This document shows positions 785 through 50,059 of a stretch of 56,471 nt of DNA, in pieces. Made by a program: the position numbers and the translations under genes. The notes under the pieces are model-generated. The model saw only the letters and a program-made list of their open reading frames with translations, was not told the DNA's origin and ran no database searches. This DNA is from Rhizaria sp. SCN 62-66 (lineage: Eukaryota): NCBI GenBank assembly GCA_001724265.1, contig MEDY01000176.1, positions 1 to 56,471 of the forward strand, in the 5' to 3' direction. How positions within the stretch are numbered: the first letter of the stretch is position 1; each line of letters begins with the position of its first letter.

Positions 785-3700
785 ATGTGGCGTCACATTT
801 TCTTCACACTCTTCACAGTAGTCGCATTCGCTACGGTTGCTCTGGTACGTTCAAAGGAGTCCTCCATCCCTCTTCTTTTCGTCTCCGAGCCGGTTTTCTT
901 TCCTTTGCAAGAAATATGGCATTGTGCTGCGCACACTCATTCTTTTTGTACACACGCCTGTACTGTTTGCTTTTGTTTCTTAACCCGTTGTGCACTCCAC
1001 ACTTGCCTTCAAATGTCCCGCTCTGCCTCTCACCGACTCTCACCAATCGCCTACTTCATTCTCTTTTGCACTCGTCAGGCTCAAACCTCTTCGAACATTG
1101 CAACCCTATCGAGCTACTTGACGGGTAGTACAAGCTACACACTCAATGCCAACTTTGTGTATCCTTCAGGTGCGACTTCCAGCTACGTGTACCTCAAGTC
1201 TTCCGAATCATGGTTCGAGACGTCAAGTTGCTTCATTTACAGGAATACCACGCAAATGGGCAGTTGCAGCTCGGGCGGGGCTCCTACCCAAACTGTTTGC
1301 GAGATCTCTTCTTATACCACGGCGACCCACACGATCTCCTGCACGGGTATCCAAATCCCTCAGGCAACTTCGCAAGCAATGACTGTCGAGCTGAACTCTG
1401 GCACCGCTGTCACTCACACGATCTCTGTTCCGCTCGCCCACGCCGTGCAGTCGTCCTACACTTTTACGACCACAGTCGCCAACTATCTCCTTAACGAGCC
1501 TAACACGATTAGCTTTACGTTTACACTCCTTGATGCCTTCTTGGCCAATCAATATATCCGCTTTGACTTCGACAAGCGGTTCCCGTTTACGACAAAGACG
1601 AGCTCCGACTGCGAGGTGTCGATTGGCGGCACTGCGGCTCAGTTTCAAAGCTTGGCTATGGATCCTGCCGGGGCTGTCAATATTTATGCTGCAACGAACA
1701 TTGCCGTGCTCTCGACGATCCTCTTTGCTTGTAAAGTTACGCCCAACACAACCGTTTCCACGACTGTGGTGCCTGCGTCGGTTGTCTTTCCCCCGAATTA
1801 CAACGTCCCGTATCCCGTTAACAAGCTGCCCATCGACATCAACAGTTACTCGGTGTCCTCCGCCATCTCGGGCTACACCCCCGACACGCGTCACGCTCTC
1901 ACACTGTCCTTTTACTCCCGCGTCGCCACAGCGGCCAACACGGCCTTTTATGTGAATTTCAATGGCCAGGTCACGCCCGTCCTTAACGCCTTCACAGGTG
2001 ATTTCGTCGTCGCCCCCATCTCTCCAGCCACTACGGTTGACGTCGGCTTTGCCACAACCAGGACAGTTTCCAACGCCACGCTTGCGATCACGCTGAAGCA
2101 GGCGTTCCCCGCCGGCCAGCTCGTGTCGTTTACTGCCCAAGTGTATCTCACCGGCGCGTTCGCCAAGGAACTGGGTGCTTTCAACTTTACCCGTCCTTCT
2201 TACCCTGCGATCATCACATCCGTCACGCCGCTCGCGTATGGCGCGCTGACGTACACATCATCCTACGCGCCTGTGATCGAATCCACTACGTACGCTCTGT
2301 CTGACATTGGTAACTTCACCATCACCATTCAGCCACTGCAGCGCTATGCACAGTACGCCGCGTGGACCGTGACGCTCCTCAAGTCACTCAAGTTTAACAG
2401 CGCGTACCCGTGCACTCTTTCCCCGGCACTTGCCGGCACGACGATGACGTTCACGCCCATTACGGGCAATGTTACGGGTCTGGCCGCGATGCCGACGGTG
2501 ATGAAGATCAATTTCGATGCTGTACTTACGGGGTCATACGATGTCTTTACGCCCGTTGAGCTCAGCTGCGGGTTTTATACGCCCGCCAGCGAAGTGGAGA
2601 CGTCGCCGGCAACGATTAGCTTTGAGTGGGCCGCCGGCAATAATGAGATTGTGAGCGCGAGTGTGGCACCATTTCCTGTTCCTATCACGGCCCATGAAAC
2701 TTCAGTGATCAGTGGTGGATTCCTGGTGAATTCACCAGTGTATATTGGACTTGTTTACAAAATTCGGCGTCGTTTGTATATTGGTGACGCTGTCACTATC
2801 ACGTTTGCTTCCGGTATTACTGTTCAAGGTTGCGAATCCGAGGTTGAGCTTGTTGCTGACAACAAGTTCATTTTTGTCATGCCATTTGACTATATTCCGA
2901 TCGAATAGGGTACTTTTATCTGCACGGTCGTCTTCCACACACTCGGCTACACCGGCATCAACATCGCTAATGCCACGTTCCCGGGTTTGTCCCATATGTA
3001 CTGGAACACTACGTTCACCACGCCTATCACGGACTATTCGGCGACCGCGGATGCATTGTCGTACTTACACACGGATGCCGACAACACGATCTCTTTCCAC
3101 TTTCGACATCTGGTCTGGTCGCAGCCCGGTGACGAATGGACCGTCACGATTGATCCGTTGCTGCAGCTCACTGGACCCTGCAGCATGGTCACACCCGCGA
3201 ATTATTCGACGTCGGAGCGCATTGGGACCACTAACTCGGCGACTATCGTCATCGACGATGAGATCGAATTATTCACGGATATTACCATCGCGTGTCCTGT
3301 GAGTAACACGTATGATTTCTTTGACACGTCGCCCGGGTCAATGACCATTGGCGGCCGCACGTTCGCGGCGTCACCCATGCCTAAGGTTCTGCAAAAGTAC
3401 GCCGGTCAGGCCACTCTCGAGTCGTATGTTACCAACGCGCAGACGACGATGACTCTCAATCTTCCATTGCTGCGACCCTATCCTGCTGACAGCACGTTCC
3501 TGTTTGTTTTTAACACCAGCTTCGTGTTCTCGACCAACGCGAGCATCATGTGCACCATTTTGCCAATCGGCAGCTCCAACACGACGCTGCCGCTGACGAT
3601 CGCGGCAGAGACTCCCACGCAGTCCCCCGGCAATGCGCACCAAATCATTACCGTAGGAGTTCCTGGCCTGAAGCTCGACGACGTGCTCAGCTTCTCGTGC

Positions 3701-6700
3701 CCGTTGATGAACCCTGTGTTGGCGACGCTGCCCCACGCGCCGGTGACGGCGACGCTGCTGGGCCACACGTTTGACTTTGATCCGCTGCCGACGTCTATCG
3801 CGGGAATGCTCACGCAGTCATCTGCTCGGCTCTATTCGTACTTGCCTAATGCTACGACGACTCTTGACCTCGAGTTCTTTGTTCTCTCTCCGGTTACGGG
3901 CACCCTTCTTTTCACTTTCGTGATTAACTCCAAGTTTGTTGGCCCCACTTGCGTTGTGAATCAGTGGCCCGGTGACTTTAGCCTCTCCACGACTAGTTCT
4001 ACCGAGTACAAAATCTCACCTGCGTCCACCACTGGCCTCCGCGCTGGTCTCGTGCGCTTGCGCTGCACCGTTACGAATCCGGCTTCGGGTGGCGTCACTA
4101 CTGCGGCTAGCGTGGCCGAGAGCTCATTGGTCATTCGTGGTACGTTGTCCTTTACGCTGCCCCAGGACGCCACGATGCAATACACGTTGACCCCCAGTGT
4201 GACGTCGTATGCGACTCTGTCTGAGCAGAAGCTCACTCTTGAGGCCACACTGCCTGTTGCTACAAAGACGGCGACGGACCTTGTTTTTAAGATCCACAAG
4301 AAGATCACCGTCAAGTACGGCTCGTGCGCGCTGTCTGGTCGCTCTGCCACTGCCGCTGTGGGCATCATCCGCATCACCCACGCGGCCACCACGGGCGTCA
4401 ACGTCAACGACATCACCGTGCGCATTCCATCCGCTGCTAACGCTAATGCGTACTACGTGCTGGCGTGCGATATCACGACACCCGACGGTCCCATCCAGGG
4501 CACTTCGGACGCTTTGGCGACGATCACCCTCGTCACGCTGGACAACACCGCCGTGACGAAGTCGTTTTCCGCGCTTCCGCACGACTTCGAGGCTTACGCG
4601 GCGACGGCGTGGCTGCTGAGTTATTTTGAGCTGATTCAGACGAGTTACTACGTCCAGTTCCGCGCGCTGACCGAAATCCCTGCTGACGTTAATATCACGC
4701 TCGCATTCGACCTCATCCACGTCCAAACGGGCGGCTCGTGCCGCATCTCCACCACGGGGCCCGACCGCGCCGAAGTTGCGGCGCGGTCCGCTGTCGCACA
4801 GAGCACCAACAACGTCGTAACGTTCACCCCTCCACAGAACCTTACAATTCCCTATGGCACTGTGATCAAGCTTCGCTGCCCTGTACGCAACCCGAATCAG
4901 AACCTCGAGGGAACTATCCCGGCCCCCACCATTTCTATCACCAACTCGCAGTACGCCAACGTGGCCTTCACGTCCGCCGCGCTGCCGCATCAGGTTCTCA
5001 CGACGTACGCTTCGCACCCGCAGCTGTTCGTGTCGCGCATGGCCAAGTACTACAGCGGCAAGGCCACGGAGCTCCTGTTCGAGTTCCCGCTCCTCGAGTC
5101 CACGGCTGCGGGCACTGTGTACGCTTTTGACCTCAACGATGGCGTCACGTTCCCGACGGGCGTGGCGGAGCCCTGCGTGGGTAACAATCTCAAGCTCACG
5201 TATGACAGCGAAGACACCCGTGCGATTGACATTGAGCTCAAGACCGCCGTGACGTCGGGCTTCATGTTCTCTCTGCTGTGCCAGATCGTCGCTCCGCCTG
5301 CCACGGTGGCCGCTTTCGTTCCTGCTGAGATGGCTTTTATCGCCAACTCTGCCGCTCAGGTCTCGGTGTTTCCGGCGCTAATCTCGTTCACATCGGCCGA
5401 CTACGCACTTGATGTCAGTATTCAGTCGCTGACGTACGGCGTCACGTCTAAGATGGTCGTATCGTTCCATCTCCTGGACGATTTCTCGGCTAACTCTATC
5501 TTCACACTTGTGCTTAACAGTGGTTTCTCGAGCGGGATCTCGGCCTGCAATTTGCCCGGCGCCGTCACGGCCATGAATGCCACGTCCCGCGGCGTTGCAA
5601 GCCGGTACACGGTTGATTTTATCCTGTCGAGCATTATTCGTGCCGGTAACACGGCTGTGATGACGTGCACCATTGTGAATCCATCCACGACCATTGGTCT
5701 GCCGGACACTCCCTTGCAAGTCATTTTCGACATTCCTGGCGCCAGCTCTCCGCGCACGTTGTCTCACCAGTTCTACATCGACCTCGTGCCTGGTTTCTCT
5801 GGCCGCACTTTGCTGTCTTCGTACAACGTTGACCCTGCTGCCACGCTGACCATTGCACTGTCGTTCCCGGAGCCGATCCAGTCGGGTGTTCTCACGCTCG
5901 CTGTGAGCAATCTTCTCCCGCTGGTCAACACGTCATGCACACTCCTCAAGGATACGCCTTACGCTTCTCTTGTCGCCTTCAGTATGGCTGCGCGCGATGC
6001 CACGTTCGACCCACATTTGGTGTTCCACGACGGCTTCCCGCTCGGTGGCTCGCTCACGATTGCTTGCACTGTGTCGACGACTCCTGGTGTGATCGACAAG
6101 ACCGTTGTTGCGACCGCGGATATGACGCCCAGTGTGGTGTTCTCGATCTCCGACCTACCGTTCCCTGTGCTGGAGACTGCGTCGAGTACGACTGAGGTTG
6201 CATCGATCGTTGAGCACACGCGCACTGTGTTGACCAACTCGATGTGGCTTGTTCGGTCGATCCCCGTCAAGACGGTCTTTTCGATTGTGATGCCGTCCAT
6301 CATCTTTACCTTCGTCGATGCGTGCACTTTCACGAACTACAACACCAAGGCTAGCGTTACGGCGGGCAATTTCACATACACGCCCACCAGCGATGGTGAC
6401 ACCAAGGTTTAGGTCCTTCTCGCGGCGCTGTCCGCGGGTACTGCGATTGATCTGGTCTGCATCGTCGGTGTTCCTGAATCCGTGTCCGACGGCGCTGTGC
6501 TCGAATACGGCCCCGCGATCCTCACCCCTCCACAGGGCACTGTCTTTTCGATCTTAATTGACCCTCTGCCGCACGCATCTGTGCCGGCTCCTGCGACTCC
6601 TTCGCCGTATTTTATCGACACACTGCGTCTTAGTCAGCAGGCGACCATGAATCTGCGTTTCCTTGTCGTTGACCGCATTTTTGCAAACACGGCTGTCACC

Positions 6701-9700
6701 ATCACTGCGAACTCACAGTTTGACACCCTGATCTGCACGCAAATCGCGACTCTGGACGCACCGAGCGCTGTGATCCGTTCATCCGGCAATGAGAGTCTGG
6801 CTGTGACTGCCTCGTTTGTTAACGGTGTTGCTGTCGGCACGGAACTCGCGTTCTCGTGCACAGTGTTCCTGTCGGAGACGGCGCTGCCGGCTAATGCTCT
6901 TGTGGCAGCCACTGTGTCGTATCCCTACGTCGCTGTTAGCAGCACCAACAAGATCCAGAATAGCGTGCGTACCGCACAGTATTCGCTGCCCAGCAACCTC
7001 GAGGCTGCGTACGTGTTTGATGTCACTGTGGGTTCGTTCCTGACTGCCAAGCCCACAGTGCTGCAGCTTGCAGTGCGTGTGCTCGACACGTATATCACGA
7101 CGGCCACGAGCCCGATTGATTTAAGCTTCAACACTGCGTTTGTCATTGCCTCCAACGCTGAGTGTAGCAGTCCCGCGCTTGCGGCTAACGCTACGATCAT
7201 GAACAACAACGTCGCGCTGAATCTCAATTCGCAGGTTCAACTCGGTGATATTGTCATTATCACTTGTCCCATCACCACACCCGCAGCGATTGGCGCGCTC
7301 ACCGGGCCCGCAGCGAAGCTTGAGAACGGCAACGCTATTACGTCGGATGTGGCTTTCACAGACCTCGAGCACGGCTTTGTCACCGGTTTCGTCACTACGT
7401 CCGACATCAAGTCGTTCATTGCCTCACAGACGACGCAGCTGCTGTTGAGCTTCTGGTTGTACGAGCCGCTTTTGGCCGATGCACAATCCTCCACGGCTAA
7501 GTTTACTTTGCCTATTTTGAATGACGGCTTCGCTAGCATCATGAGCTGCAAGGTCACTGACTCGACGGGCTCCACCGCGCGCTTCCTCAACATCGAATCC
7601 ACGGATCGCCAGATCACCTTCGACATTTACCCCGAGGAGCGCTCAGGCTTGCAGATCTTCATCGACTGCGTTGTTGTGAATAAAGACCAGGCATCTGCAG
7701 GTTCGGCGAGTCGCGAGCTCGGCATTGGTGGGATTGGTATTTGGGAAATCCCATTCCCTGATCTCATCAATGAACCGCAGACGAAGTACACTGCGCAGCA
7801 CGTTCTGCACTCGTTCATCGAGTCTGCGAACACAACGCTTGAGGTGGGCTTTGATATGCTTGAAGAATTTGCAATTGGCAAGACAATCTCCTATGAGGTT
7901 GTGAACGTCTTCACCATCGTTGCCAGCGGTACGGTGCCCTCATGCACGGTTAACTACCCGGAGTCGTTTGTTCTCTCGCTCTCGGGTACACACACGATTG
8001 TGTTGCGTGCTGTGGAGATCCTGCCTGCTGGCTCTCGTATTGAGCTCACATGTAATGTGGTGAACCCTCAGGCCGCACTATCGCCGACCGGTTTTGTTGT
8101 CACGATCCGTACGACGCCCGTATCGGAGAGCCGTCTCTTCAATTCTGAAGTGCTCGCACACCCCATTGTTTCTGCCTACACTGGCACACTGACGGCGGAC
8201 TCGCTCCTGCTCAGTGAAGCTACGGTGATTGAGGCTCATTTTGACGCCCTTGAAGGATTCTCAAGCGCTGGTTATGGTGACACTATCTTATTTTCGTATT
8301 ACTATGGCTTCATCGCCGCGTCGAGCAACTGCTCGCTGTCTTATACAGACGCCGAGCTCGAAGAAGTCGCTGTTGCAGAGCTGTCCCTCGACGGCGCCGC
8401 CGATATCAGCGCCAGGATCACCATCGACGTTCCCGCAGGCACGACTCTGGCATTCCGGTGCAAGCTTATGGCTCCCTCTGTGTCATTCGATGTCGCGATT
8501 CTTACGGCTATTTTCACGCTGAACACCGCACTGCGAACACTGGTTTTCCCTGATACGGCTGCTCCGTTCTCGAATCAGTACACATTTTCATCCCAGCTTA
8601 GCTCCTATTACCCAAGCGTTGCAGCCACCCTCACGCTGCGGTCTGTCATCATGGAGTTGATTGATGGAGCGACGTTCGAGATCGAGCTCACTGAAGTATT
8701 TGCTTCTGTTTCCACATGCACCGCGCTCCCAACCCCCTCGTCAAAGTCGGGTTCATCGCGCGCGCATAGTTTTAACTATAATTCCATCTCCGCTGGCACT
8801 CAGCTTGTGATCACGTGCAGCGTCACAAATCCCGCTTCGTCATTAGATATTTCGCCCGGTCTCATTATTTTCGACTCTCCTGCATTGGGCTCCAATCAAG
8901 AACAATATTTTGCCACGTTGCCACACTTCATCACAAATGATTTTGCTGTTGCAGTACGTCTCGAGTCATTTTACGCTAACCGTGTGAACACGAAGTACAC
9001 TTTGTCGTTCATGCTGCTGATGGAGTGGAATGTGGGCACTGTCGTGACGTTCAATCCCCATTATGGCTTTCATTCCACGTTCGACACGCTCACTTGCACG
9101 ATGGATGGCACTAGTACGCTTTCTATCTCCACACTGAAGGAGTTACGTTTCACTGTACTCCAGGCCTTTGTAGCTGGTTTCCGTGTCACAATGAACTGTA
9201 TTGTTACAACGCCCGCTGTGGGTATTGATATCAACGTCCCACCGGCAGAAGTTTCGGGTGCGATGCTTCTTTGGACGCAAAGCGGATCGATAGTTAGCTT
9301 CCCGTTCCCTGCGTTCTCACGATCATCAACCGTTTCGAGCATTAATGGCGAAGTCACACTTGACTCCTACTATGTCGATGAGCCGGCCGTGATGACATTT
9401 AGCATGTGGCTTCCCGAGGACTTGCTTAAAACTGATTTCTTGTCTTTTAAGTTTGACTCTCGCGTGGCCATTACTGCAGGCGCTACTTGCGGTGTTGGTG
9501 GCACGACTGCGCTCAGTGCAACCACTTATGTGTCTGGCAACGACGCATCTGTTGTGGTTGTGATCGATGACGATAACGATGTCGCGATTCTTGCTGGTGA
9601 ACCTTTCACCATTTCGTGCAATATCTTGATGCCATCGACGAGTAACGTGAAGATCGGCAACACTACGGCATTAAGCCAGACTATTTATGGTCAAAGCAGG

Positions 9701-12700
9701 GTGATTGTGTTTAACCAGTTCTTGTACCCGATTCTATCCAAGCTTGAAGCATCATCGCGCCAGTACTCATACATCAATGATGATGTGTCGTACTTTGTCA
9801 TTACGTTCCGCACGAACAAGTTGCTGACCAAGGGTACAACTATCCAGTGGAATCCAAATCCGAATCAGTTCGCAAACGACATGACCTGCCAACTTAAGCG
9901 CCACTGGGACGATGATGAGCTCAATATCGGCACTTCATCAGCTGGGTTTTATGTTGATATCGCGGTAGAGGAAACCGTTAACGCTGCCATCACGCTGTAC
10001 ATTATCTGCGATGTAACGATCAAATCTGACCCAATGATGTCGTCACTGATGTTGTCGGATTTGCAGGTCGGTAATGAGCCTGCGACGCCGCTGTCAACTT
10101 TGTTGATGTATCCAGTGTCTTCGAACCCTGTGACGTTCACGACGCAATTTTTCGCCACCAAGTCGACGACGGTGATCCAATTCACTTACAAGCTGACCGA
10201 GTATCTCCAGTTGGGCGACACCGTCACGGTGACCCTTCACTCTGGCTTTAAGATTGACGCTGAGCTTCCCTCGTCTATGTCTGTTTCTGGCACTGATATG
10301 ACTCTAGTAGATAAGGGCAGCAACACTCTTAAGCTCGTCACCACCCGCGAGCTTGCGCCGAACGAGAATGCTGACTTCTTCATCTCCCTTATCGCCCCTG
10401 AGTCGCATGATGTCTTTAACGACGGTCTCAAAATCGTGCGCTTTGATTTTGGCACTGTGGACTCTTACGGCTACAAACCTCGTTGGGGTGAAACCAGCTC
10501 CTTCACCGGCGGCAACGTGTTCCGTGATGAGAACCTGAAGGTGTCGTTCGCGTCGTACCTTTCAACAGCATCGAGTGTTGTGACGACTTTTAGCTTCACC
10601 GTGACCGACCCCTTCACGGCGACAACCGCGACACGGTATGAACTCATCCTTTTTGGTCGCGAATCTGCGTCTAACTTTCCGACTATTTCATGTAGCGGTT
10701 TTGCCGCAACGAACTCTTCAGTCCTGGGCAGTTTATCACAGGCGAGTATGAGTACGATGATTAATGTTTATTTCCAGACAGGCTACGTTTATGTACCTGG
10801 TACGACGTATTCTTTCACAGCCAACTGCGTTCTATACCCCATTGTTGCTACGGCCAAGCAGTATCTCTTCGAGCGCGGCACCTTCTAGCGCCATAGCGAG
10901 CTTTCGCGCAATGTTGTCTTGTCGCCGCTGTCTCACCCGATCGTGTCGGCTTACCCGGCGGTCCTGTCCACGTCGAGCTATATTGCCGGCGACACGAACG
11001 TCACATTGACGGTCGATTTCTGGGCTGTGGAGCCCTTCTGTACATCGTGCACACTTGACACATGCGACAGTTGCTCTGACTACGCCATGTTTACATTGGG
11101 CTCAACGCTTACAGGTGACATCTTAGCCAACTGCAATCTCAAGTACACGATCCTGGACCGTGCAGAGACGACTCTGCCCGTGTCATGCTCGTCGTGCGGC
11201 CTCTCCGACGTAAACTTTAACTTCACCGAGTATGTCCCTGTGGAGACAAAGCTCACGCTCACGTGCACTGGTATTACTGTGCCTGCGACCGAGTTCCCTG
11301 CACGTGATGCTGTCCTTGTGCCTGGCAGCATGGTTCTTAGTGGCCGTACCCTTAAGTCTATGGGTGTGGAGCTCTTTAAGATCGACCCGCTGCCTTATAA
11401 CTTCACCACCGACTTCGCGACTACGGCGTCGCTATCGTCTTACCGTGTTGGTGCACATTCTGTCATGACGCTGTCCTGGCAACTGCCACGGTCCGAGACC
11501 ACGAGTGCGACGCGCAGTCTCGAGCTCACACAAGGATACTTCACTGGGATCGATGACTGTGTATTGAGCCCCACTTACGATGTCATTTCGTTGTCTTCCT
11601 CCGATTCCACGATCATGATGTCTAATTTCATCGGTGCTGCGGGTGACAAGTTCACTCTCACTTGTAATGTCAAGACTGCAGCGGTCACATTAGATAAGAC
11701 AGTTGCCACCCTCAACATTGGTGGCGATGAGCTCACGTTTGTGCTGCCGCAGGAGATTGTGCAGCGCTATGAGACGAGTATGACGCTGTCTGATGCTACT
11801 GTGGGCGACAACTCTACTGCCGTCTTCACGCTCACTCCTTTTGTTGATATGGATGGTTTCGTCGCTGTCATCAGTTCGCCCCTCTTCGCATCGGGCTCTT
11901 GTCAGTCTTCGGCGTTTGCTGGGTCAATTGCATTTAATGCCACGACACACGAGCTTAAGGCTACGTTTGATTCTGCTCCCGCCAATGACCCTCTTTCCAT
12001 CACATGCACATTTGTGGTTGGCCCTGCCTATGATTACTCCCTTGCCATTGTGTTCACGCACAGCTCAATGCTCGAAGCTGAGACGTACTACTTCCCTGAG
12101 CTGGTGTCTGCGGTCGATGCTATTCCTATTGATGTGCGTCTGTCTTCGAAGCACGCACAGTCCGCGTCTAACCTGCGGCTTACTTTTACTGCTCCGCTGC
12201 TGCTCATGGATGACTACTCCACTGGACTCGTCATCAAGTCACAGTTCACCGAGATCTCGGCCTGTTTTAGTGATGACATGACAATCGATCTCAACGATGA
12301 CGATGTGTTGCTCATGTTCCTGCCGAACGTTATCCGCGGAGACCAAGTACGCGTCGACTGCAACGTGACCAACTCTGCAGTGGGTGCCGCTTTTGACATC
12401 AAGGGTTCTTTCATCGGTGACGGTAAGCCTAAAGTCAGCTATGTGGGCAAGCTTGTCGAACGCGTCGCCGCCGTCACCGGCGCTACTTCGCGCGAGTCCC
12501 TTGTTGCTGACGCCACGACTGTGTTCAACGTCATGTTTACCGCGACGGAGAATCTCGATGGACAGATCCTGCGTATTTACACCCAGGACGCATTTAGCTC
12601 TTTTGTGTCTAACTCGTGCACCGTCACGCGGAAAACTGTGGTCCCGGACACGAACCCAGTGCAGTACACTCAGGCTGCCGCGGGCTCGGTTGCGCTAGTT

Positions 12701-15700
12701 CCGTATTTCGATGACGTTGGTATCGCGACGACATTCACTGCCGTCGCCGTCAAGGACTCGGAGCTCACCATCACGTGCACTGTCGTAAATTCGCCAGTGC
12801 CTGTGGCTAACGTGACTGCGTATTCGTACTTTTCGCTCGACGGCCGTTCCTCGTTCCCGCTCGATCTGCCCCTGCTTGAGGTCACCACGTCGTATGTCGT
12901 TGCCACTTTCTTCCTCGAGAACAAGCGCGCCCTCCGCGCGGACACAGGCTTCACGATCTCTTTCATGCCCTCGCTACCACCCGCTGGATACACCCTGGAG
13001 CTGCCGCTGCAGCCGGTGTTTACGACCGTCGACGCCACGAGCTGTGAACTGTCACAGGCGTCGGTCTGGCCCGTTGAGAACCCCGATTCTTCGTCTACGG
13101 TTAATCTCGTTGGTACTGTCACTTACAATGCCACCACGTTTGGGCTGTCGGTGCACTTCCGCTCGACCGCGGTCAAGTGGGAGCTTGTCACACTGAAGTG
13201 CCGTGGCACTCTTGCTGCCGCGAGTGCTGCTCAGACTGTGTACGCGCAGTTCACCCCCGCCTCGACGAACAGCACTCTGCCAGTATTTGACCTCAGGGCT
13301 GAGGTGATGCAGATCATCCCCGAGATTGTCATCACACCCACGACGACGAACCACTACGTCAATGAGTCGAGCTCTATTGCGGTTCCTATCACAATCACGG
13401 AGACGACGATGGAGGGATGGATGATCACAATTTCGACGACGAATACGTTTATTACAGTTTCGAACTGCTACGTCACGGTGCCCGGAGTGTCTGTCAACGG
13501 CACCGCGTCTGATCCCGTTTCTGCCGGTACTGTTACGGTCGATGGAACCACGATTAAGGCGACGCTCAACGATCAAGCGCGGAAGGATGCCGTGGTGACT
13601 GTGTCGTGCTTCGTGCAAAACTATCTGCGCAAGAGCAACATTCGCTGGCTTGGCGTTGCCTCAAAAACTGGCTCGACCTCGTTTGAGTACGGCTTCACCG
13701 CGCACGACATTCTCTATCGGCCGCCTACATTTGATGCGCTGCTGTCGTCATCTATTTACGACGACTATCTGGTGACGCTAACGATGACGACGCTGCTGAC
13801 TTTGCCGCTCGAGATTGGACAAGAGCTCTCGCTCAACATGGAGACGCTTTTCCCTGGCCGCGCAACTGGTAAGCAGTGCTCGATCAAGTTTGGCTCGGCC
13901 GCCACGCGTTCACGCACTATCGGCACTGATGCCCTCGTGTTTACAGTTGATTTCTTCGACGTCCGCGACATCAATACGCTTGTTGAGATAATCTGCCGTG
14001 GTATGACGAACCCGAAGACTGCGGCCGAGGTCGTTCCCATCACGGGCATGCTTGCGGGCGAAGTTCCGCTGTCAATTAGCGTTAAGAACACGTTCGTTAC
14101 CACCACTGTGCCTGGCGCTGTGGTTGCTAGCTCTTACACTTCTGGCACCACCAATGTGGAGCTTGTCTATGAGTTTGTTACACAACGCGACCTCAATGGT
14201 TACGCGGTCCGCATTGTGCCGCTCCGCCGCTTTAACCTTACCACGGGCTGCGCAGCGTTGAATCTGGCGTCCACGTTCACACTGCCCACGGTCGCCGCGG
14301 GCGAGGAGCGCATCATGGAGGTGACGATTGGCGCCACCACGAACATTGGTGACACAGTCAAGATTAGCTGCGTTGTCAATCTCGGCGAGCCGTCCAACGC
14401 GTCAACGTATACGCTATCCTTCACTAAGACGAGCAGCAAGGCGGTACCTGTCGCGGTCACCATGCGCTATGTGGTGCCCGCGCCCGTGTTTGTAGGTTCG
14501 CTGTCGTCGTCGATCTTGGGTGACACCAGTGTTGTGTCCAAGATCAGTGCCCCGATCAGGTTCCCCATTGCGTCGGGTAACACGATCAACTTCAACTACC
14601 AGGACCAGTTCACTCTCTCGAGCGACGTGCGGTGCGCGATTAGCATTAACAATGCGTCGACGTCGCTCACGGTCACGTCATCAACGGCTATCTCGTACAC
14701 ATTCACCTCAGCCCAGGCCAACCTCACCGTGATTGGCCTTGATTGCGTTGGTCTTCGCCTTCCTACGGCGGCATTTACAATCAGCGGTGTAGTCTCAACG
14801 ACTGAGGCGCAGTATAGCTACGTGTACTTCTCGTTTGCGTACACCAATACCCTCGTCACTGCACATGCGCTCGGCAACACCACTCTCAGCACGTACCTGC
14901 CTTCGCAGTCGGGAGTCACCATGGTGGCTACGTTCAAGGCTCTTAAGGATCTCTCGGGATTCGCTTTTGTGTTGTCTGCGACGAACAGGATGTATATTAA
15001 CTCATGTGAATCGATTCCGAGCCTGCTGACTGGCGCTTCGAACACAGCGGAGACAAGCAACATCACACTCACCTTCAGTAGTTCCACGACCGTGAACCAG
15101 GAGATTGCAATCCAGTGCGTTGTGCGCACACTCGCCGCGTCGGCCAAGAGCAACATTATTGGCAACTATTACCTCGGTTCCACATCTGCCGCCGGCTCTG
15201 GCACGGTGCAGTTCGAGTTGGCCACCATTGTGTACTCGTACACTGGCACCGTTACGCAGTCGTCCAATGTGCAGGGTGAGATCAACACTCTCGCATTTAC
15301 GTTCTCCGCGCTTGATGACCTTACAAGTCGCACCCTTACACTCGATTTGGCCACAGTCGCTACTACCGTGACGTCTTGTGACGTACCAGAGACGTTAGTA
15401 AGCCATGCCGCTACTATCAACGGCACTGTGGTGAGCTTCGTGTTCACGGGGTTCACAACGAGTCTTAGTGTCGTCTTCACCTGCGTTGTAATCAACTCCG
15501 TCGCCCGCTCTGGCTCCGAGCTCCGCGCCGTCGTCACCCACCCCACTTCGCTTGCCGCTGCGCTGCCGGTCTACTTCTCCCACAGCGGGCTTATCGCGCG
15601 CGCGCTCACGGACCGCCTTGTCCAGTATGAGTCCTTCGCCGCCGCTGGTTCGCGCACGACTCTCACGCTCAAGTTGCGGCCTAACTTCATCATCACGTCG

Positions 15701-18700
15701 ACGATGTTGATTCGCTTCCCGCTGCCCGCGCACATCATCACTGCGGCGTCGCAGTGGCCGATCACGTGCACGGTCAAGGTTGGAACCGCGGGTGCTGTCG
15801 CCGTCACGCCCATCACCGGCACGAAGTTCTCCTTCACTGGCGTCAGCAGCGGCGTCGCCGGCGTTCTCATCGAGTTTAACTGCCTCAACTTCCCGCTGCC
15901 CGCGACGCCGATGGCTAACGCATCTGAGCTGCTCCTGGCTGTCGTGACCCCTGCTGTCGCGGCTAACACGACTGCCGGCACGGCCGCCGTGGCCGAGCAA
16001 GTTCTCGTCTCCCACACCACGACCGTGCCCGCGTACCCCGCTATCGTGGCTTCGGCCTTCGGCGGTGAGACGGCGATTGTGACTTACGACGAGCCCTACC
16101 CTAACGCACGCACGTCGGTTACCTTCACCACCAAGCCTTCGCTGACCTCTGCTGTTACCGTGGGCTGGGCGATCTCGGCCGAGCTTGCCTTCGAGGTGAC
16201 TCTGCACGCGACTCTCGCCATGGCGTGCACACTCACCGACGGCACTGTCTCGATCACGGGCACGACCAGTGCCACGCGCTCCGCGTCATCGGGTGTGATT
16301 AGCATCTCTTGGGCCGCCGCCTCAGCCGGCACGCTCGACGCGTCCAAGGCGATGCGCTTCCGTTGCACTAATGTCGTCATGCCCGCCGGTCTGCGCTCTG
16401 CCGCTTACTACGGCTCTCTGTCGGCCGGTCCCGCGCCGCTGCGTGCATCGCACTACACGTCGGAGGCGATCGTGTCAGCGCAGCTCGCGGGCCTCTTTGC
16501 GAGCTTCTCGCCGAACATTGTGGGTACCGCCACTGCCGCGTACACCATTAATAGCGTTGGTGTCGACCTCATTGCCGGTAACACTCTTGTCGTGCCCGTG
16601 CCTGAGGGCACGACGCTGGGTCCCTCCGGCGCCGTCGTGTGCCGCGTCGGCACGAGCAACGCCTTCTCTGCGACTCTGCAGACGACGCTGTCACGCGTTC
16701 TGGCTACGGTCCCGCAGAGCGCGTCCGCCAGCAAGACGGACTCCTTCAACTGCACTGGCCTCGCGCCGCCGCGGTCCACGCTCGCGAGTATCAGCACCAC
16801 GAACCAGCTTGCAATTTACCGCTCTCAGGATCTTGATGCAGAGTTTGCTCACGGCTCCGTGACGTCGCCTGTGATTGTCGCGCGCGAGATCACGACTGCT
16901 TCCGACCTCAACACAGTCTCTGTCGACCCCACTACGAGCACGGCTGTGTTTGTTATGCAGGGCTTCTCGTTCTCGCTTATCCCGTCGTCGCGCATCACCA
17001 TCTCAGTCCCCGCCGACCTCACGGTGTCCACGTGCACCATGCTCGGTAGCGACCGCGCCACTGCGCTCGCTGACGTCGCTGTGACTGCAGTGACTTCCAG
17101 TAGCCTTGTTGTCTTCACGTTTGCGTCCAGCGTCGCAACTGCGATTCCCGCGCACCAAGCTGTCGTCAATAGCACAGACTACATTTATGTTGTGCGCTGC
17201 ATTAACGCTAACGTGCCGGCGTACATCGTCGCTCCTTCGAGCACACTCACGACGTCCCTGTACTTCACATTCACGGATAAGCTTAGCTCAGCCCCCGCCA
17301 CTCGCTTCCTGGGCGTCGCGGCGCCCGACATGGGTACTGTCGCCGTCAACACGATGCCGTGGCCGTCGACGCAGGGCTCGCTTGTCATCACGTGGAGCAA
17401 CCACAGCTTCTCGCTCACTGCTGGTGACGCTATTTCTGTGTCGTTCACCAATAGTACCGCACTGCTGTTTGACACTCAGCATAACTCATGCGCCGTCCGT
17501 GGCACGTCTGTCACTGCACTCGTCACGCAGTCCACTAGCACTGGCTTTGTTCTCACGGTCATGGGCGCCGTGCCGGCTGCGATGGGCACGACGTTCATGC
17601 TCACGTGCTCGCACGTTACCACCGCAACAGTGCTGGGCCAGGAGCCCGCCACGGCCTCGTCTTCACTGAGTGTTTTGCGTCTCAACAACGCGGCCCAAGT
17701 TAAGGCCACGACCGCTAAGGTCACGTTCCCTGTGCTTGTCACGCGCCCCTTGTCGATGACGCTCACGGCTGGACTTGTCACGCCGTCGAGCTTCTCCTCC
17801 GCTTCGGGCACGCTCAATATGACTTTGCGTGCGTCTGACACACTGCCGCCTGGCGCACAGCTCGTCTTCCCGCTCCCCACTAACATGTGGACTGTGACGG
17901 CGTCTTCGTGCACGGGCTCCATTGCAGGTGCTGTCGTCGCATCGTCTAACGGTGCGAACACCAACTTTGTGTACTCGTTCTACAACGTGCTGCCTGCTGC
18001 CACCACATTCACGCTGTCGTGCACCACCGCTTCATCGGCTACTGTGTTCCGCCCGTCGTCATCGGTTATTGTGTCTGTCACAGCGGACGCCACCACAAAC
18101 GGTACCACCACACTGACTGTGCCCGCTGTCGTTGGCACCATCGGCACGCCCGCAGATGTTGTACTCTCGGCGCCGCGCGTTGGCGCTCTGACCAACATTA
18201 CTGTGCGCCTTCCCTCCATCGCCGCTCCGCTGGCGTCCGCCTCGATCGCTATCGGTCTCCCCGCTGGCACATCGCGCACGACCTCGGCCGCCTGCACGCT
18301 CACGCCGCGCGTCGGCGAGACCCCAGTTACGACCGTCTCGCTCTCGGGTTTCACTGTGACATCGAACACGACCGCGTTTACTACTAAGTTGACGCTTGCG
18401 ATCTCTGGCACCATGACCACAGGCACGTCGCTCACGCTCTTTTGCACGGGATTCCGCGCCCCGCTCGCCGTCGCCGCGGCGTCCAACACCACGCTCGAGG
18501 CCATCGCCACGCAGGGCGGCGCGGCCTCGGATGCCGGCCAGATCGCCGCGCGCACTCAGCTGATCTCCGCGGGCGTCACGGCCTTCCCCAACGCCGCGGC
18601 CACATTCTCCTTCGGCGGCACTGCGGGCAGCACGTCGACTCTGTCGGCTAGCTTATCCGCGATTGGCTTTGATCTCCCGATCAACTCGGTGCTGACTGTT

Positions 18701-20518
18701 GCGGTGCCACCCGGCGTGACACTCGCGGCCGGCACCAGCGGCACGGCATGCGTGTTTGATGATACCGTTCCTGTCGTTGTTTCGATTGACTCAACCACGA
18801 ACCTGGTGTCGTTCAACTTCCAGTCCGCGGTGACGGCGCGGACCGGCACCACGATGCTGGCACTTGAGTGCATTGCGGCTTTCGTGCTGCCTTCGGAGGA
18901 GATCGTGCGCACCTCGGCCGAGGTCATCTTGTACTCGCCCACGGGCCAGGCCAACTTGCTGACGCCGCTGCTGACTGCCCAGGCGCCCTTCACGGGCATC
19001 AAGGGCGCCACGCTGCAGGTCGAGATTGCCGCCGTCAACGCACAGGTCAACGTTTCCACGTCGCTGCGCTTCAACATCCTGCCGATGACTGTGAATGCGG
19101 CTGCGGGCGATTCGCTTATCATGGTTGCGCCCATACGTTTCACGTACGTTGCTAACGCTAACAACATGACGACAGCGTGCTTGCTTTCGACGTCGTCGCA
19201 GGCCGTCGTGCGTCTGACGATTGTGGCGAACCCTTCTGACAGCACTGTCTTGTACACGCTGCTCTTTGTCTCTGCCGCCAATCTCCGTGGCACGACTGCG
19301 TCTCAGGTCACATGCAGTAACATTCGCACCCCCTCCGCGGCTGTTGCCGAGGCCCGCGGGCTTGCTACGCTCAAGTCATCCGCCGGCGCGGTCCGCGGCT
19401 CGGGCACCACGAGTGCCATCTTCTCGCCCATCATCGCCGCGGCTTTCGCGACGCAGTGGAGTCGTATCATCCCGCAGTCCACCATCGCCGGTTCCGACTA
19501 CGGCATGCTGACCGTGCTGCTGTCACCGCTGACGTCCGCACTGGGTCTCGGTAGCACGTTCATCGTGACTCTGCCGCCCACATGGTCCATCACGCCCAAC
19601 GCTATCACCTGCGCCGGATCGTTCGGCAACGGCAACCGCCAGTCGGCGACGCTTACCTTCACGACGTACGCGCCCACGGTGGTTGACGCCGCCAACAAGG
19701 TGCTGCGTGTGTCGGCGCCGACGATGCAGTTCAAGCCCACCGACAGCAAGCTTCGTATCTTCTGCGACAATGCGGTTCGCGTGCCTGCCGTGGCGACGGC
19801 TGCGGTGACGGGCCCGTTCGTGTCGATTATCGACGCTAGTAACAATCCGCTGCTGCAGGCGCTGAACGTGGAGATTCCGGCGATCACTGCGACGGCTGTT
19901 TCGGTCAACTATCTCACCTTTACGGTGCAGTTTTACTCCGCGACCAGTTCGCTGTCATCCGATGACATTCGTGCGCTCACCGTTATCTTTGGCAACATCG
20001 CTGAAATCCCGCTTGACAACGTCTTTGTGCGGAGTCAGGCCGTGTCGTCTTCTCGCTCTTTGGCCGCCGGCTTCAGCGAAGGCCTCGCAATTGGGCTCCA
20101 TGGCACGGGTGGCGTGATCCCGCTTGATGTCAACATGGTGATTGTGCCGGTGGCAGACCACAAGAACAGCATCGAGGATCTGTATGACATGGTTTCGCAG
20201 CGGTCGTCGACGCTGCTCCAGAGCATGAACTCCGTCACAGCGCACAACGCGCAGACGATTGCCGATGTTAAGGAGACGGCGTTCCCGGCCACCTGCGCCA
20301 ACGGCGTCAAGGACAACACCGAGACTGACATTGATTGTGGTGGCAGCTCGTGCCTGCCGTGCCTGGCGACCAAGGCATGCTCTGCTACCTCTGACTGTCA
20401 CGTTGGTACTTGCACGGGCGGCTACTGCACTGGTAAGACCAGTGCTGCGGCCGGACTTACCGTCACCGCTACCACCATCGTGGCCGCGCTTGTCGCGATG
20501 ATTGCTCTCCTCTTGTAA
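785..20518 (+). CDS. Giant (~6,499 aa) predicted secreted, GPI-anchored surface protein of tandem ~130-145 aa Cys-paired beta-rich repeats; exons 785-844 and 1079-20518; contains 3 in-frame TAG codons
   Basis: ORF-track pieces 785..2908, 2987..6412, 6482..10888 and 10919..20518 share one frame, each separated by a single TAG with no other stop in the gaps; the final stop is TAA (20516-20518). Splicing 845-1078 gives signal peptide MWRHIFFTLFTVVAFATVALA|Q. The C-terminus is a Cys-rich module plus a hydrophobic tail. Confidence 0.85.
845..1078 (+). other. Spliceosomal intron, 234 nt, phase 0
   Basis: CTG|GTACGT donor, pyrimidine-rich body, CTCGTCAG|GCT acceptor; removal yields a clean signal peptide cleavage site (ALA-Q). 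Confidence 0.85.
2906..2908 (+). other. In-frame TAG #1, inferred sense codon
   Basis: ...DYIPIE*GTFICTVVFH...; the repeat unit's second Cys (FIC.V) lies just downstream and the frame stays open. Confidence 0.85.
6410..6412 (+). other. In-frame TAG #2, inferred sense codon
   Basis: ...DGDTKV*VLLAALSAGTAIDLVCIVG...; the AG..I.L.C.V repeat motif follows in frame. Confidence 0.85.
10886..10888 (+). other. In-frame TAG #3, inferred sense codon
   Basis: ...LFERGTF*RHSELSRNVVLSPLSHPIVSAY...; the LSHPIVSAY linker matches LAHPIVSAY of an earlier repeat. Confidence 0.85.
20291..20518 (+). other. C-terminal Cys-rich module (C.NG.KD..ETDIDCGG..C..C....C.....DC....C....C) and GPI-anchor-like signal
   Basis: Translation TCANGVKDNTETDIDCGGSSCLPCLATKACSATSDCHVGTCTGGYC then TSAAAGLTVTATTIVAALVAMIALLL-stop: small residues followed by a terminal hydrophobic stretch with no cytosolic tail. 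Confidence 0.75.
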
Positions 20519-27123: not shown

Positions 27124-27785
27124 GCACTTGCCTTTCCAGTAAGTCTGTCAAGCAAGATCGAGGCAATGTGGCAAGAAAGTGGGGGTGTGAGCAGGGAGGA
27201 CAGGAGAGAGGCGAAAGTGGGAGGCAACGAAGGCGCCTGTGCGATGCCTTAGGGATGGACGCTGACTTTAAGCATGCATTTTGGTTGGCAAACAAAGTCC
27301 TATCAAAGTCTTAGTAATAGATGATACACGCTCGCTCATGAAGTATCTCTAGCAACAAACAGGTAATCGCGGATGATGATATGACCAGAGTATTCCCGTT
27401 CGCCCGTAGGCCATCCCTTTGCTCGAGTGAGCGAGGAGGGCCCAGCCTCGTCGACTGTCTTTTCCCGAGCGGTTCGCAAAAATTGGTGGGAAGAGCAAGT
27501 GAAGGAATCTTGTTTCTCCAGTTTTCGCCATAAAGCTATCGTCGATTAGATTGCAGACTTATTTCCGCCTATCACATCTTTAGTTTAGTTTTACATTTAT
27601 TTTTAGCTTTCTCTTGTAGACAATCCACCTGCTCATCAACACCAATTGTTTCGCTATCCGTTACACTGTCATTGCTTTTCTTCATCGATCTCGTACAAAA
27701 CGCAGTCCCAGAGCAGCTTAACAACAACATCGACATTTAAGACCTTACCGGAGCACAGAACTTGCGTAAATCTGTAAACACGTTG

Positions 27786-29225
27786 ATGTCTTACTCTGCT
27801 AGTACCTTGTCGTCGTCCTCAGCGGCCGGCAGCGGCACCCGCCAGCTGCCTGTGCGCGGTGTCACCGACGCCGCCATCGACACGTGCAACATCATGACGT
27901 GGCACACCGTCAACCCACAGCCGCCTGCGATCCCGCCGAACGTGCTCCCACCGTCCTTTGAGCTGGTTGAGTTCGGCGAGCTCGCTGTGGCGCTGCAGGG
28001 CAGCTCGACGGCGCTCAAGCTCCAGGCCCTGGCGCGGCTGATGTCGCTGTTGCAGCACCCCACGACGCTGCCGCGTCTCATTGCCAACGCGCAGAAGGTC
28101 TTTTCCGAGGGCGCCGCTACGGGTACCGTTGACGAGGACACGCTCAAGGCCTCGCTGGCGGACCGTCTGATTGCGGCCGGCCCCGACGGTGCGGCCCCAG
28201 CGTCGGGCCACCTGCCTGTGCGGCACAGTGGGCCGCACTACGCGGGCGACCTCTTCCAGGACGTCGTCGACACGCTCGAGGACGCCAGCGCGGACTGCCG
28301 CGCGCGCGCCGCTGCCGTGCTGCGAGTCGCCACCGCCGCGCCGCTAGGCCTCGAGTTCGCGGTCAAAGTGGACATCTTCCCCCGGCTGATGAAGCTGTCC
28401 GAGGACCCGTCCGCGGACTGCCGCGCGGGCCTCTACGCAGTGCTGCTGAACCTCACCAAGGCGCCCAACAGCACCGCACTCGACCGCATGCTCAAGCGCG
28501 GCCTCATCGCCACGCTCGTGACGGCGGCGGGGGCCGAGACCGCGCCCGCGGTCACGGAGGCGCTCCTGGCCGTGCTCGCCTCCGCGGTGCGGCGGTCGAC
28601 CGCGCTCGCGGCCCCTGTGCCCGCCGCCGCAGCGCCAGGCGCGGCCCCCGCGGCGCGCGGCGCGACGGAGCTCTCCGCGGAGGCCGAGACCGCGCTGGCC
28701 CTGGCAGTCTCGCTGCTGTCCTCATCGGATGACGCGGGGGTCTGGGCGGGCGCGGCGCGCGTCATCGCCGCCGCCGCGCTCGCGGCCAAGGGGCAGAACC
28801 ACGCCGTGGCGCTGGGCGCGGCCCCGCTGCTGTGCGCGGCGCTGGCGAGCGCGGTGCCGGCCGTGCGCGAGGCCGCCGCAGGGGCGCTCATGCAGGTGAC
28901 CGTGAGCCGGAGCGGCAAGGTCGCCGTCACATAGTGCGGCGGCGTCGCAGCGCTCTGGGCGGTCGTCACCGGCGTCCAGCAGCAGCAGCAGGGGGCGAGC
29001 GGCGCCTAGGGCGCGGCTGCGGTGGGCCAGGAGGCCGGTGTGACGGTGGCGCACGCGCTGGGGGCGTTGACCAACACGGCGGAGCTTCCGGCCAGCAAGG
29101 AGTGCGGCGTCATCACGGCGCCGGAGACGGCCGAGTTCCTCCGCAGGCTCATCGCCAGCACTAAGAGGGAGCTGGTGAAGCGCGCCGCCAAGAACGCGCT
29201 TGCGCAGTTTCTCTGGACGCCTTGA
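27786..29225 (+). CDS. RSPH14: Radial spoke head 14 / RTDR1-like armadillo-repeat protein (~479 aa) with 2 in-frame TAG codons
   Basis: ARM/HEAT repeats. Segments LSEDPSADCRAGLY, VREAAAGALMQVTV..GK, ALTNTAELP and the terminal KRAAKNALAQFLWTP match remembered RSPH14 features ([48 protein letters not shown]). ORFs 27762..28934 and 29022..29225 are in one frame; final stop TGA. Confidence 0.82.
28932..28934 (+). other. In-frame TAG #4, inferred sense codon
   Basis: SGKVAVT*CGGVAALW: sits at the polar position of the ARM helix-1 motif (typical AVVEAGGV). Confidence 0.85.
29007..29009 (+). other. In-frame TAG #5, inferred sense codon
   Basis: GVQQQQQGASGA*GAAAVGQEAG: a Gln/Ala/Gly low-complexity linker before the conserved RSPH14-like C-terminus. 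Confidence 0.8.
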
Positions 29226-29749
29226 TGGGCGAGGTGTAAGAGCAAATATGAGCAAAGTGAGGTCTTTGCAGTTCAGGTGGAGTTTACTTAGATTCGGATA
29301 TCAGGGCCTGTATATTCACATTTTTCTGAATAAACACAATGTATAGTTTTGAATCAAGTTGAAGAGTTAATTATTAAGTCATCATTCAGAAACAAGCATG
29401 TATATGTTGTTTGATAGACGTGGATTAATTTCGTCCACAAACGCAGATTCTGAACTGACCTTCTCGAAGACTCTGGAGGAGTCGGGAAGAATAACGGCAC
29501 TTTGCGTGCTCCAGCGTGCACATCATAACTTTTATTAAAAACGAAAGCAAACACCAGTAATCGTCCAATATTGAGCCAACTAATAATTTACTCACAACGG
29601 ATTCTTCTCGACTATTTTTTCCCACGCAGTTACCCCCAAACACACAACACACACGTCAACTGATCTTGTCTGTCTTGTCTTGCTCACAACTCAGAGCCTT
29701 CTTGCTTCTGCCTACGCACACCCAGCACACACTCACAACACACAACACA

Positions 29750-35268: not shown

Positions 35269-35299
<31 letters not shown>

Positions 35300-41184: not shown

Positions 41185-41827
41185 ATGTTCATCAAGAACC
41201 TCCTTATGGGGATCTTTCTGATTGTACAGATTCTGCTCGGTCTAGTCTTCACTGCACTCGCGAGCTTTCTGGTTCACAGCAAGGCGTTTCCCTTTGCTTA
41301 CTTGTTCATGCCCTTCGCGCTCTTCTTCCTCGTCATCGGACTTGGTGGATTTCTCGCTGGATCAAGATGGGCCACAAAACTGTGGCTATATCTTACTACT
41401 ATTCATTTTCTCACCCAGGTTCGTCTTGTTGTCCTCTCCGTCACTTCGCTTCAAGTTGCTGGCTCGTGCAGCGCACTGTTCACTCACTGTCGCTCTAACT
41501 GATTTCATTATTGATGTATCTTTGCGATTAATTCCAATCACCTTGTAGCTTGCCATTATGTTTGCGTTTTTGTTCTGGTTTAACCGCGTCATCGGCCAGA
41601 TCCAAGACAACGACGGTGACGGCATGATCAACAACATCGTCTCCCTCGGCTTCGGCGTCCTCAAAGACTACCGCGTTTACATCACAGTTGCTGTTGGCCT
41701 TAACGCGGCGTTCGAGCTCATCGTGCTGCTTGTTACCGGGTGTCACTCACTTTCAAAGAGAGACACTGCAACCGCGGTGACGAAGCCACGACGTGCGCGC
41801 CCGCTGTCACCGTCTGCATTCGCCTAA
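41185..41827 (+). CDS. Four-TM tetraspanin-topology membrane protein A (~170 aa); exons 41185-41418, 41549-41827
   Basis: Four hydrophobic segments, short loop between TM1-2, longer loop between TM3-4; no CCG motif; stop TAA; start codon uncertain. Confidence 0.7.
41419..41548 (+). other. Spliceosomal intron, 130 nt, phase 0
   Basis: CAG|GTTCGT ... CCTTGTAG|CTT GCC ATT ATG; in-frame join within TM3. Confidence 0.8.

Positions 41828-50028: not shown

Positions 50029-50059
<31 letters not shown>

Follow-up and report, generated by a model that had tools for sequence, protein, structure and literature searches.

The window described here is the complete contig MEDY01000176.1 (56,471 nucleotides) of the GenBank assembly GCA_001724265.1, which is filed under Rhizaria sp. 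SCN 62-66. On its forward strand lie a giant gene for a repeat-containing protein and, further downstream, a gene for an armadillo-repeat (ARM) protein resembling RSPH14/RSP14. The reading frames of these two genes contain five TAG codons, here called TAG#1 to TAG#5 in the order of their positions, and from the evidence presented below the codon UAG is very probably translated in this organism. The features of the two genes are as follows.

785..20518, forward strand: giant gene of 6577 codons with three in-frame TAGs, ending in TAA
2906..2908, forward strand: TAG#1, codon 708 of the giant gene, in frame
6410..6412, forward strand: TAG#2, codon 1876 of the giant gene, in frame, in the context K-V-*-V
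10886..10888, forward strand: TAG#3, codon 3368 of the giant gene, in frame, in an unalignable linker
27786..29225, forward strand: RSPH14/RSP14-like ARM gene of 479 codons, intronless
28932..28934, forward strand: TAG#4, codon 383 of the RSPH14-like gene, in frame, at the start of an ARM helix
29007..29009, forward strand: TAG#5, codon 408 of the RSPH14-like gene, in frame, in a lineage-specific insert rich in Gln, Gly and Ala
29010..29222, forward strand: conserved C-terminal 71 codons past both TAGs, with the last ARM repeats and the AELP and W-x-P motifs
29223..29225, forward strand: TGA stop of the RSPH14-like gene; the flank after it has 40% GC

The RSPH14-like gene and the giant gene

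The frame 27786-29225 contains exactly two in-frame stops, both of them TAG, and the peptide strings which the original prediction, made from the same DNA, had given around them are present letter for letter in its translation. When 5.8 billion proteins were searched, a single close homologue was obtained, namely P0003 with a length of 455 amino acids (E 1e-147). The alignment with P0003 extends from residue 19 to the last residue and is unbroken across both TAG sites to the same C-terminus; opposite TAG#4 the homologue has Ala, with no gap there, and opposite TAG#5 it has Arg within a gapped linker. The identity to P0003 amounts to 223 of 382 positions (58%) before TAG#4, 11 of 24 (46%) between the TAGs and 51 of 71 (72%) after TAG#5. 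The GC content at the three codon positions is 0.73/0.57/0.90 before TAG#4 and 0.66/0.55/0.90 after TAG#5, and the flank past the TGA has a GC content of 0.40.

In order to place the gene in a family, its protein product (P0001) was used as the query of an exhaustive HMMER search of 1.84 billion representatives, which yielded 38 matches at E 0.001 or better. Alignment A1 (24 sequences) was composed of 22 of these matches together with P0001 and P0003. The window's own split pieces (P0002 and P0011) and 8 long multi-domain ARM proteins of 679-3696 amino acids were kept out of A1, and the remaining 6 matches were aligned apart from it as alignment A3. Only two columns of A1 are invariant, K378 and P435, and the latter is located downstream of both TAGs. 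The family ends in a W-x-P motif, with which the query end ...AQFLWTP is aligned. A conserved C-terminus beyond the two TAGs had been proposed by the original prediction; the identity of 72% to P0003, P435 and the W-x-P motif bear this out, and the refuting case named there, a lack of homology in 29022-29225, does not occur.

Comparison of the A1 profile with solved structures gave 6e-66 and 3e-64 for RSPH14 chains and 4e-51 for Chlamydomonas RSP14, and profile positions 24-362 were aligned collinearly to residues 11-348 of the human chain 8j07_T, which has a length of 348 residues. A designed ARM protein scored 1e-59 with the same profile, hence the profile alone is not specific. With P0001 alone as query, chain 8j07_T was matched at E 4e-10 and chain 9fqr_Fj at 0.004, while importins reached 0.16 or worse; Pfam gave sub-threshold ARM/HEAT matches only, and the homologues are metagenomic proteins without names. 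The collinear alignment of the whole ARM solenoid together with the C-terminal motif thus supports, at the level of sequence comparison, the designation of 27786-29225 as an RSPH14-like gene, and the earlier naming of the gene as RSPH14 agrees with its best structure matches. Like the window protein, the RSPH14/RSP14 chains 8j07_T, 9fqr_Fj and 7jtk_X, which represent a protein of the radial spoke head, consist of armadillo repeats, and they are collinear with it up to the C-terminal W/F-x-P. Unlike these proteins with their 348-387 residues, the window protein has 479 residues owing to an N-terminal extension and inserts. The extension comprises about 150 residues (27786-28240) with a conserved L-P-V-R-x-S-G-P-x-Y motif and is common only to P0003, P0010, P0012-P0014, P0009 and P0022; canonical RSPH14 is without it.

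The frame of the giant gene spans 19.7 kb without any in-frame TAA, TGA or frameshift. The N-terminus of its product resembles a signal peptide, and the C-terminal tail is hydrophobic, with a Cys-rich module close to the C-terminus. The protein contains 44 Cys-pair repeats, each about 130 residues long, and the period of the repeats runs on across the TAGs. The GC content at third codon positions (GC3) is 0.68, compared to about 0.9 in the neighbouring genes. No Pfam family was found in the giant protein, and in a homologue search across TAG#1 to TAG#3 all three matches were the window's own pieces. The gene probably encodes a very large surface protein or adhesin with a new type of repeat.

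Stop codons in the window and recurrence of the TAGs

In nine gene segments of the window with a total of 12,684 codons, TAG occurs in frame 5 times, and neither TAA nor TGA occurs at all. At the gene ends, the terminators of 12 window genes are TAA in 7 cases, TGA in 5 and TAG in none. Two apparent stops are intron boundaries, and for these genes the actual end was counted. Although third codon positions have 80-97% G+C, the most frequent terminator is TAA. Composition alone does not lead one to expect this, and it agrees with TAG not being available for termination. The bases following the five TAGs are G, G, C, T and G, i.e. there is no common readthrough context, and UAG is not found in the strongly biased housekeeping genes of the window.

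Further sense TAGs were sought by means of a window-wide list of TAGs with stop-free flanks and their GC3, which was dominated by antisense frames belonging to real genes and added no site. Additionally, an open reading frame (ORF) of 201 codons with two TAGs and hydrophobic stretches (41222-41827, forward strand) was left out of the count of sense TAGs due to its low GC content and the lack of a family.

Both TAGs of the RSPH14-like gene were found with 0 differences in contigs from other studies, namely X3 (covering 28636-29956) and X5 (28796-29253). Moreover, a contig from a polyA RNA library, X9 (28885-29133), is identical to the window over both of these TAGs with 0 differences and 0 gaps. 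The matching contigs X3, X5 and X9 argue against an assembly error, an intron and editing at these sites. For the giant gene, the ORF terminated by TAG#1 recurs in the strain variant P0168 (L455H) and the ORF terminated by TAG#3 in the strain variant P0171 (D2193A, N2664D).

Run X4 differs from the window at five positions, three of which are located in the giant gene (10888, 14990 and 15230) and two in spacers (21274 and 27411). In the giant gene, TAG#3 reads TAC, and CTG stands once in place of ATG (M to L) and once in place of GTG (V to L), so that all three changes lead to C and none is synonymous under the standard code. The C>T change at 27411 is common to X4 and to the RNA run X9, which belong to the same study. 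Among the X4 contig pieces listed, none extends across 28142-29074, where TAG#4 and TAG#5 are located.

Gene callers cut the genes of this organism at TAG. In the databases, the RSPH14-like protein is present in two parts (382 and 67 residues), and the giant protein is divided into four.

Probable translation of UAG and the residue inserted

The reading of UAG as a sense codon has good support, given how few sites there are, on the grounds that neither a frameshift nor TAA or TGA is present in the 7,056 codons of the two genes, that the sequence downstream of the TAGs is conserved, that the TAGs occur across populations and that TAG terminates 0 of 12 genes. In this eukaryote, which is uncultured, flagellated and GC-rich, UAG would no longer serve as a terminator. 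It would instead be decoded by a dedicated tRNA with the anticodon CUA, the recognition of UAG by the release factor eRF1 would be weakened, and as a consequence translation would yield the complete RSPH14-like protein (479 residues) and the giant surface protein in a single chain (6577 residues). The balance of the evidence tips slightly towards this form of the reading, in which a dedicated tRNA(CUA) gives UAG the meaning of an amino acid while UAA and UGA terminate translation. The rarity of UAG (5 in 12,684 codons) and its absence from strongly biased housekeeping genes suggest a young or inefficiently decoded codon, and the location of all five TAGs at permissive positions is just what a young or leaky codon predicts.

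Several observations count against translation of UAG or narrow the basis on which it stands. The sample consists of five codons in two genes on one 56-kb contig. The C-termini are confirmed by homologues for the AP-1 mu gene and the RSPH14-like gene only, whereas for the other ten genes the end was taken from the ORF, in most cases with no more than a short stretch past the stop in view. One antisense frame across the RSPH14-like stretch is open as well; as GC-rich DNA leaves this frame open too, the evidence lies in the homology and not in the open frame alone. The RNA contigs of X9 also cover 27387-27767 upstream of the ATG, hence this library may contain DNA. A tRNA scan of the window gave 0 tRNA genes and Rfam 0 families, so that a tRNA(CUA) was not seen in it, and no eRF1 domain was detected in Pfam scans of its main ORFs. 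As calculated from codon usage, TAG would be the outcome of 60% and 78% of the possible nonsense mutations in the two genes, and the probability that all five stops are TAG is about 0.13 if the genes are pseudogenes; the argument from TAG being the only stop is therefore not decisive by itself. Finally, the TAC (Tyr) in place of TAG#3 in run X4 would also suit a nonsense allele segregating in the population.

The last two of these points speak for a standard code in which the TAGs are nonsense mutations and both genes are pseudogenes or null alleles with little decay. Large protist surface-protein families, moreover, often contain pseudogenes. As a rough estimate, stops arise from no more than a few per cent of substitutions, and from general mutation spectra five nonsense hits would imply, again roughly, at least 100 neutral substitutions and several indels; the two genes contain five stops and yet not a single frameshift, TAA or TGA. 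The RSPH14-like protein is most conserved in the part after the TAGs, the TAGs recur in runs of four studies and in strain variants, and 2 of 12 genes would have to be affected in a window in which no gene ends in TAG. Altogether, loss of function in both genes is considered decidedly improbable. Still less credible is the explanation that the TAGs are unreal or never reach the ribosome as UAG, be it due to assembly or sequencing errors, a missed intron or RNA editing (for example of U to C, giving CAG). The window does have GT-AG introns, one of them with an apparent in-frame TAG at 37050. The independent DNA contigs X3 and X5, however, are identical to the window base for base, and the polyA contig X9 is collinear and unedited over both TAGs of the RSPH14-like gene. 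In addition, the confirmed introns are AT-rich and begin with GTAC, whereas the TAG-bearing stretch has about 77-81% GC and P0003 is aligned through TAG#4 without a gap.

A more serious alternative, although a rather unlikely one, accepts translation through UAG but dispenses with a tRNA(CUA). UAG would be poorly recognized by the release factor, near-cognate tRNAs would insert mixed residues (Gln, Tyr and Lys, for example), and TAG would persist only at permissive positions and in genes that can do with less product. This is consistent with five TAGs at variable or unalignable positions which indicate no single residue, with their very low number, with the alternation of TAG and TAC (Tyr) between populations and with the absence of TAG as terminator from 12 of 12 genes; in yeast, natural suppressor tRNAs insert Gln, Tyr and Lys at UAG according to the account in PMC4150775. 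On the other hand, three readthroughs in a message of 6577 codons would multiply the losses unless each was very efficient, and no readthrough-promoting context is shared by the sequences after the TAGs. Cognate suppressor tRNAs were furthermore found or inferred in the stop-to-sense cases described in PMC11687900 and PMC5304391.

If UAG is a sense codon, the residues at corresponding positions of homologous sequences bear on its meaning. In A1 the column of TAG#4 comprises, for the 23 homologues, Glu (7), Asp (4), Lys (2), Gln (2), Pro (2) and one each of Ala, His, Val, Thr, Ser and Leu, and the profile log-odds are +1.3 for Glu, +1.1 for Gln, +1.0 for Asp, +0.8 for Lys, -0.2 for Ala and -1.4 for Leu. 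Opposite TAG#4, Glu is present in human RSPH14 (8j07_T), as the original prediction had stated, and Asp in the RSPH14 chain 9fqr_Fj. In A3, which represents the clade with the N-terminal extension, 5 of the 8 other rows cover the site with Ala, Asp, Lys, Ala and Val. TAG#5, previously assigned to a Gln-rich linker, falls indeed into the insert rich in Gln, Gly and Ala, and this insert column carries no information from the family.

The repeats of the giant protein were used in the same manner. Compared with 39 sister repeats, the column of TAG#1 contains Ala (16), Leu (5), Thr (5), Val (3) and others, and the column of TAG#2 is hydrophobic with Phe (11), Leu (8), Ile (5), Ala (5), Tyr (4), Val (4) and Thr (2). 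The posterior of the hidden Markov model (HMM) at TAG#2 is only about 0.5, and a shift by one residue gives a polar, outward-facing column in which Gln is ordinary. Of the earlier description of TAG#2 as an outward-facing position in an alternating strand, the context itself is found as described, but the column is hydrophobic and becomes polar only after this shift. The HMM alignment of the repeats stops short of TAG#1, and TAG#3 is located outside the aligned core. In a leave-one-out calibration, the probability of true sites scoring as low as TAG#1 and TAG#2 together was 0.003 for Gln and <0.001 for Glu, compared to 0.6-0.95 for Tyr, Leu and Ala; true Val sites, too, occur in columns of this type. 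Due to the fragile register at TAG#2 and because TAG#1 is not reached by the HMM, this inference of the residue from the repeats was not relied on.

Judged from these alignments, the five sites, none of which is at a conserved position, cannot name the residue, and their columns disagree; this, too, weakens the case for a fixed meaning of UAG. The claim that the context indicates Gln or Glu and not Leu is consequently not established, as the TAG#4 column is variable, the other columns are rich in Ala, hydrophobic or unaligned, and TAG#3 is replaced by TAC in X4. At 28932 itself the expectation held in so far as Trp and Tyr are absent and Leu occurs once, but the column is too variable to single out one residue. 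The alternation of TAG and TAC at 10886 is a mild hint for Tyr, with which it would be synonymous, and equally it may be a plain replacement in a fast-changing surface protein. When the column scores were weighed informally against precedent, Gln emerged as the single best guess with somewhat less than an even chance of being correct, chiefly owing to precedent and to the polar TAG#4 column. Leu appears unlikely, Tyr marginally more so, Glu less likely again and Ala very unlikely, and what is left is distributed over other residues.

As described in PMC5304391, PMC11687900 and PMC10553269, UAG-only changes have led to Gln, Leu or Glu. A residue new for a UAG-only nuclear change, with UAA and UGA kept as stops, would be fairly unlikely here. 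The candidates would be Tyr, because of the TAG/TAC alternation at 10886, and Ala, because it is the residue of P0003 at TAG#4 and the dominant residue of the TAG#1 repeat column.

Gene neighbourhood, source organism and known codes

The genes of the window have a GC3 of about 0.8-0.97, and introns and spacers have about 40% GC. The introns are conventional GT-AG introns of about 150-200 nt which are AT-rich and start with GTAC; ciliate introns, in contrast, are very short. Pfam recognized a P-type cation ATPase, a ubiquitin-conjugating enzyme, condensin II CAP-H2, a protein with an adenylate kinase domain, a short-chain dehydrogenase, ferrochelatase and AP-1 mu. The following gene structures were resolved.

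33390-37703, forward strand: condensin II CAP-H2 with CNDH2_N and CNDH2_C domains
37019-37212, forward strand: GT-AG intron of the CAP-H2 gene (control), containing a seemingly in-frame TAG at 37050
46446-48170, reverse strand: ferrochelatase, three exons with two AT-rich introns between them
48958-53805, forward strand: one gene composed of the ORFs 48958-50352 and 50425-53805, joined over an intron at about 50335-50482

The TAG at 37050 was rejected as a sixth sense TAG since it is located inside the CAP-H2 intron. The CAP-H2 gene is enlarged by long low-complexity tracts of Ala, Ser, Gly and Asp, and the product of 48958-53805 (about 1570 residues) was assigned to no family by a Pfam scan. 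For the ORF 29666-31306 (forward strand, 546 residues) no Pfam match was obtained. Its neighbours in a protein atlas are the Hsp70 nucleotide-exchange factors Fes1/HspBP1/SIL1, with a feature score of 0.96 and a structural TM of 0.42-0.47, and a Fes1/HspBP1-like product is possible as a lead.

Half or more of the sampled words of the stretch 27700-29300 were found in four runs from three studies of bioreactor or wastewater metagenomes, and the contig itself may stem from one of them. In runs X10-X14 the shares are small, and no conclusion on habitat is based on these runs. The nearest relative in the protein collection is 89% identical in AP-1 mu and 60-64% identical in the RSPH14-like protein. 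The best named match of AP-1 mu, with 68% identity, is a sequence that EukProt assigns to the euglenid Ploeotia vitrea, and haptophytes and ochrophytes follow with 62-64%; these scores are too flat for the organism to be placed by them. A metagenome scan with the alignment of P0001 and P0003 for the DNA encoding P0003 gave 116 pattern matches with no relative among them, and a scan with the AP-1 mu of the relative (P0046) returned only one contig of 1964 nt, which contains that gene alone with a TGA stop. When contigs of prokaryote genomes were scanned with the window ATPase for mis-binned pieces, only bacterial and archaeal ATPases with 22-30% identity were found.

The rhizarian exLh (Sainouroidea) is a described case of UAG coding for Leu, in which 384 in-frame UAGs were reported in 71 genes and the residue was fixed by conserved Leu positions (Panek et al. 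2017, PMC5304391). The terminators given there are UAA (56) and UGA (15) only, and UAG is rarest in highly expressed and ribosomal protein genes. The window resembles exLh, as far as it is described in that paper, in that UAG alone occurs in frame, stops are restricted to UAA and UGA with UAA being the commoner (here 7 to 5), and UAG is scarcer in highly expressed genes. In contrast to the abundant UAG and the conserved Leu columns of exLh, the window has about 0.4 UAG per 1000 codons and none at a conserved column. This is a likeness of the codes and not a statement on kinship of the lineages. In the fornicate Iotanema spirale, which is known from transcript data, UAG codes for Gln (PMC5304391). 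There, too, the reassignment concerns UAG only, and it leads to the residue which the original prediction proposed for the window and which is no more than the best guess here. Unlike what is described for Iotanema, the window is GC-rich and encodes ferrochelatase, judging from the Pfam match, and nothing links the two lineages.

For phyllopharyngean ciliates, a study of 2024 (PMC11687900) describes UAG coding for Leu or Gln, UAA as the preferred stop and genes for tRNA-Sup(CUA). The present case is similar to that description in being a UAG-only change recognized in environmental assemblies, with UAA as the main stop and a tRNA(CUA) as the expected agent. It differs in that UAG is widely used in those ciliates, in which tRNA-Sup(CUA) was found, and is rare here. 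In Amoeboaphelidium, as described in PMC5304391, UAR codes for Gln, so that the change is not limited to UAG. An oligohymenophorean ciliate uses UAA for one amino acid and UAG for another (PMC10553269). As in the window, the two codons are uncoupled in that ciliate, but both are sense codons there, whereas UAA terminates 7 of 12 genes here. Near-cognate readthrough as in yeast, where UAG is read as Gln, Tyr or Lys (Blanchet et al. 2014, PMC4150775), would account for the permissive TAG positions and the TAG/TAC alternation. Such readthrough is normally of low efficiency at genuine terminators, in contrast to what a protein of 6577 residues made through three UAGs would require.

A full-text literature search for UAG reassignment in a metagenome-assembled eukaryote returned nothing beyond the papers cited here. 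Nuclear codes with different meanings of UAG and UAA are rare and of special interest because wobble by a suppressor tRNA with the anticodon UUA is thought to couple both codons (as stated in PMC11687900). If UAG is indeed sense, the window would add another independent UAG-only case, from a GC-rich non-ciliate lineage, and the very low usage of UAG could show an early stage of codon capture. Since the organism recurs in bioreactor and wastewater data of several studies, its genome, tRNAs, eRF1 and even peptides could be obtained from existing material. In summary, the probable use of UAG as a sense codon in the window follows the pattern of the known UAG-only reassignments, and the case is distinct from them in its very low UAG usage, its GC-rich genome and the lack of a close named relative.

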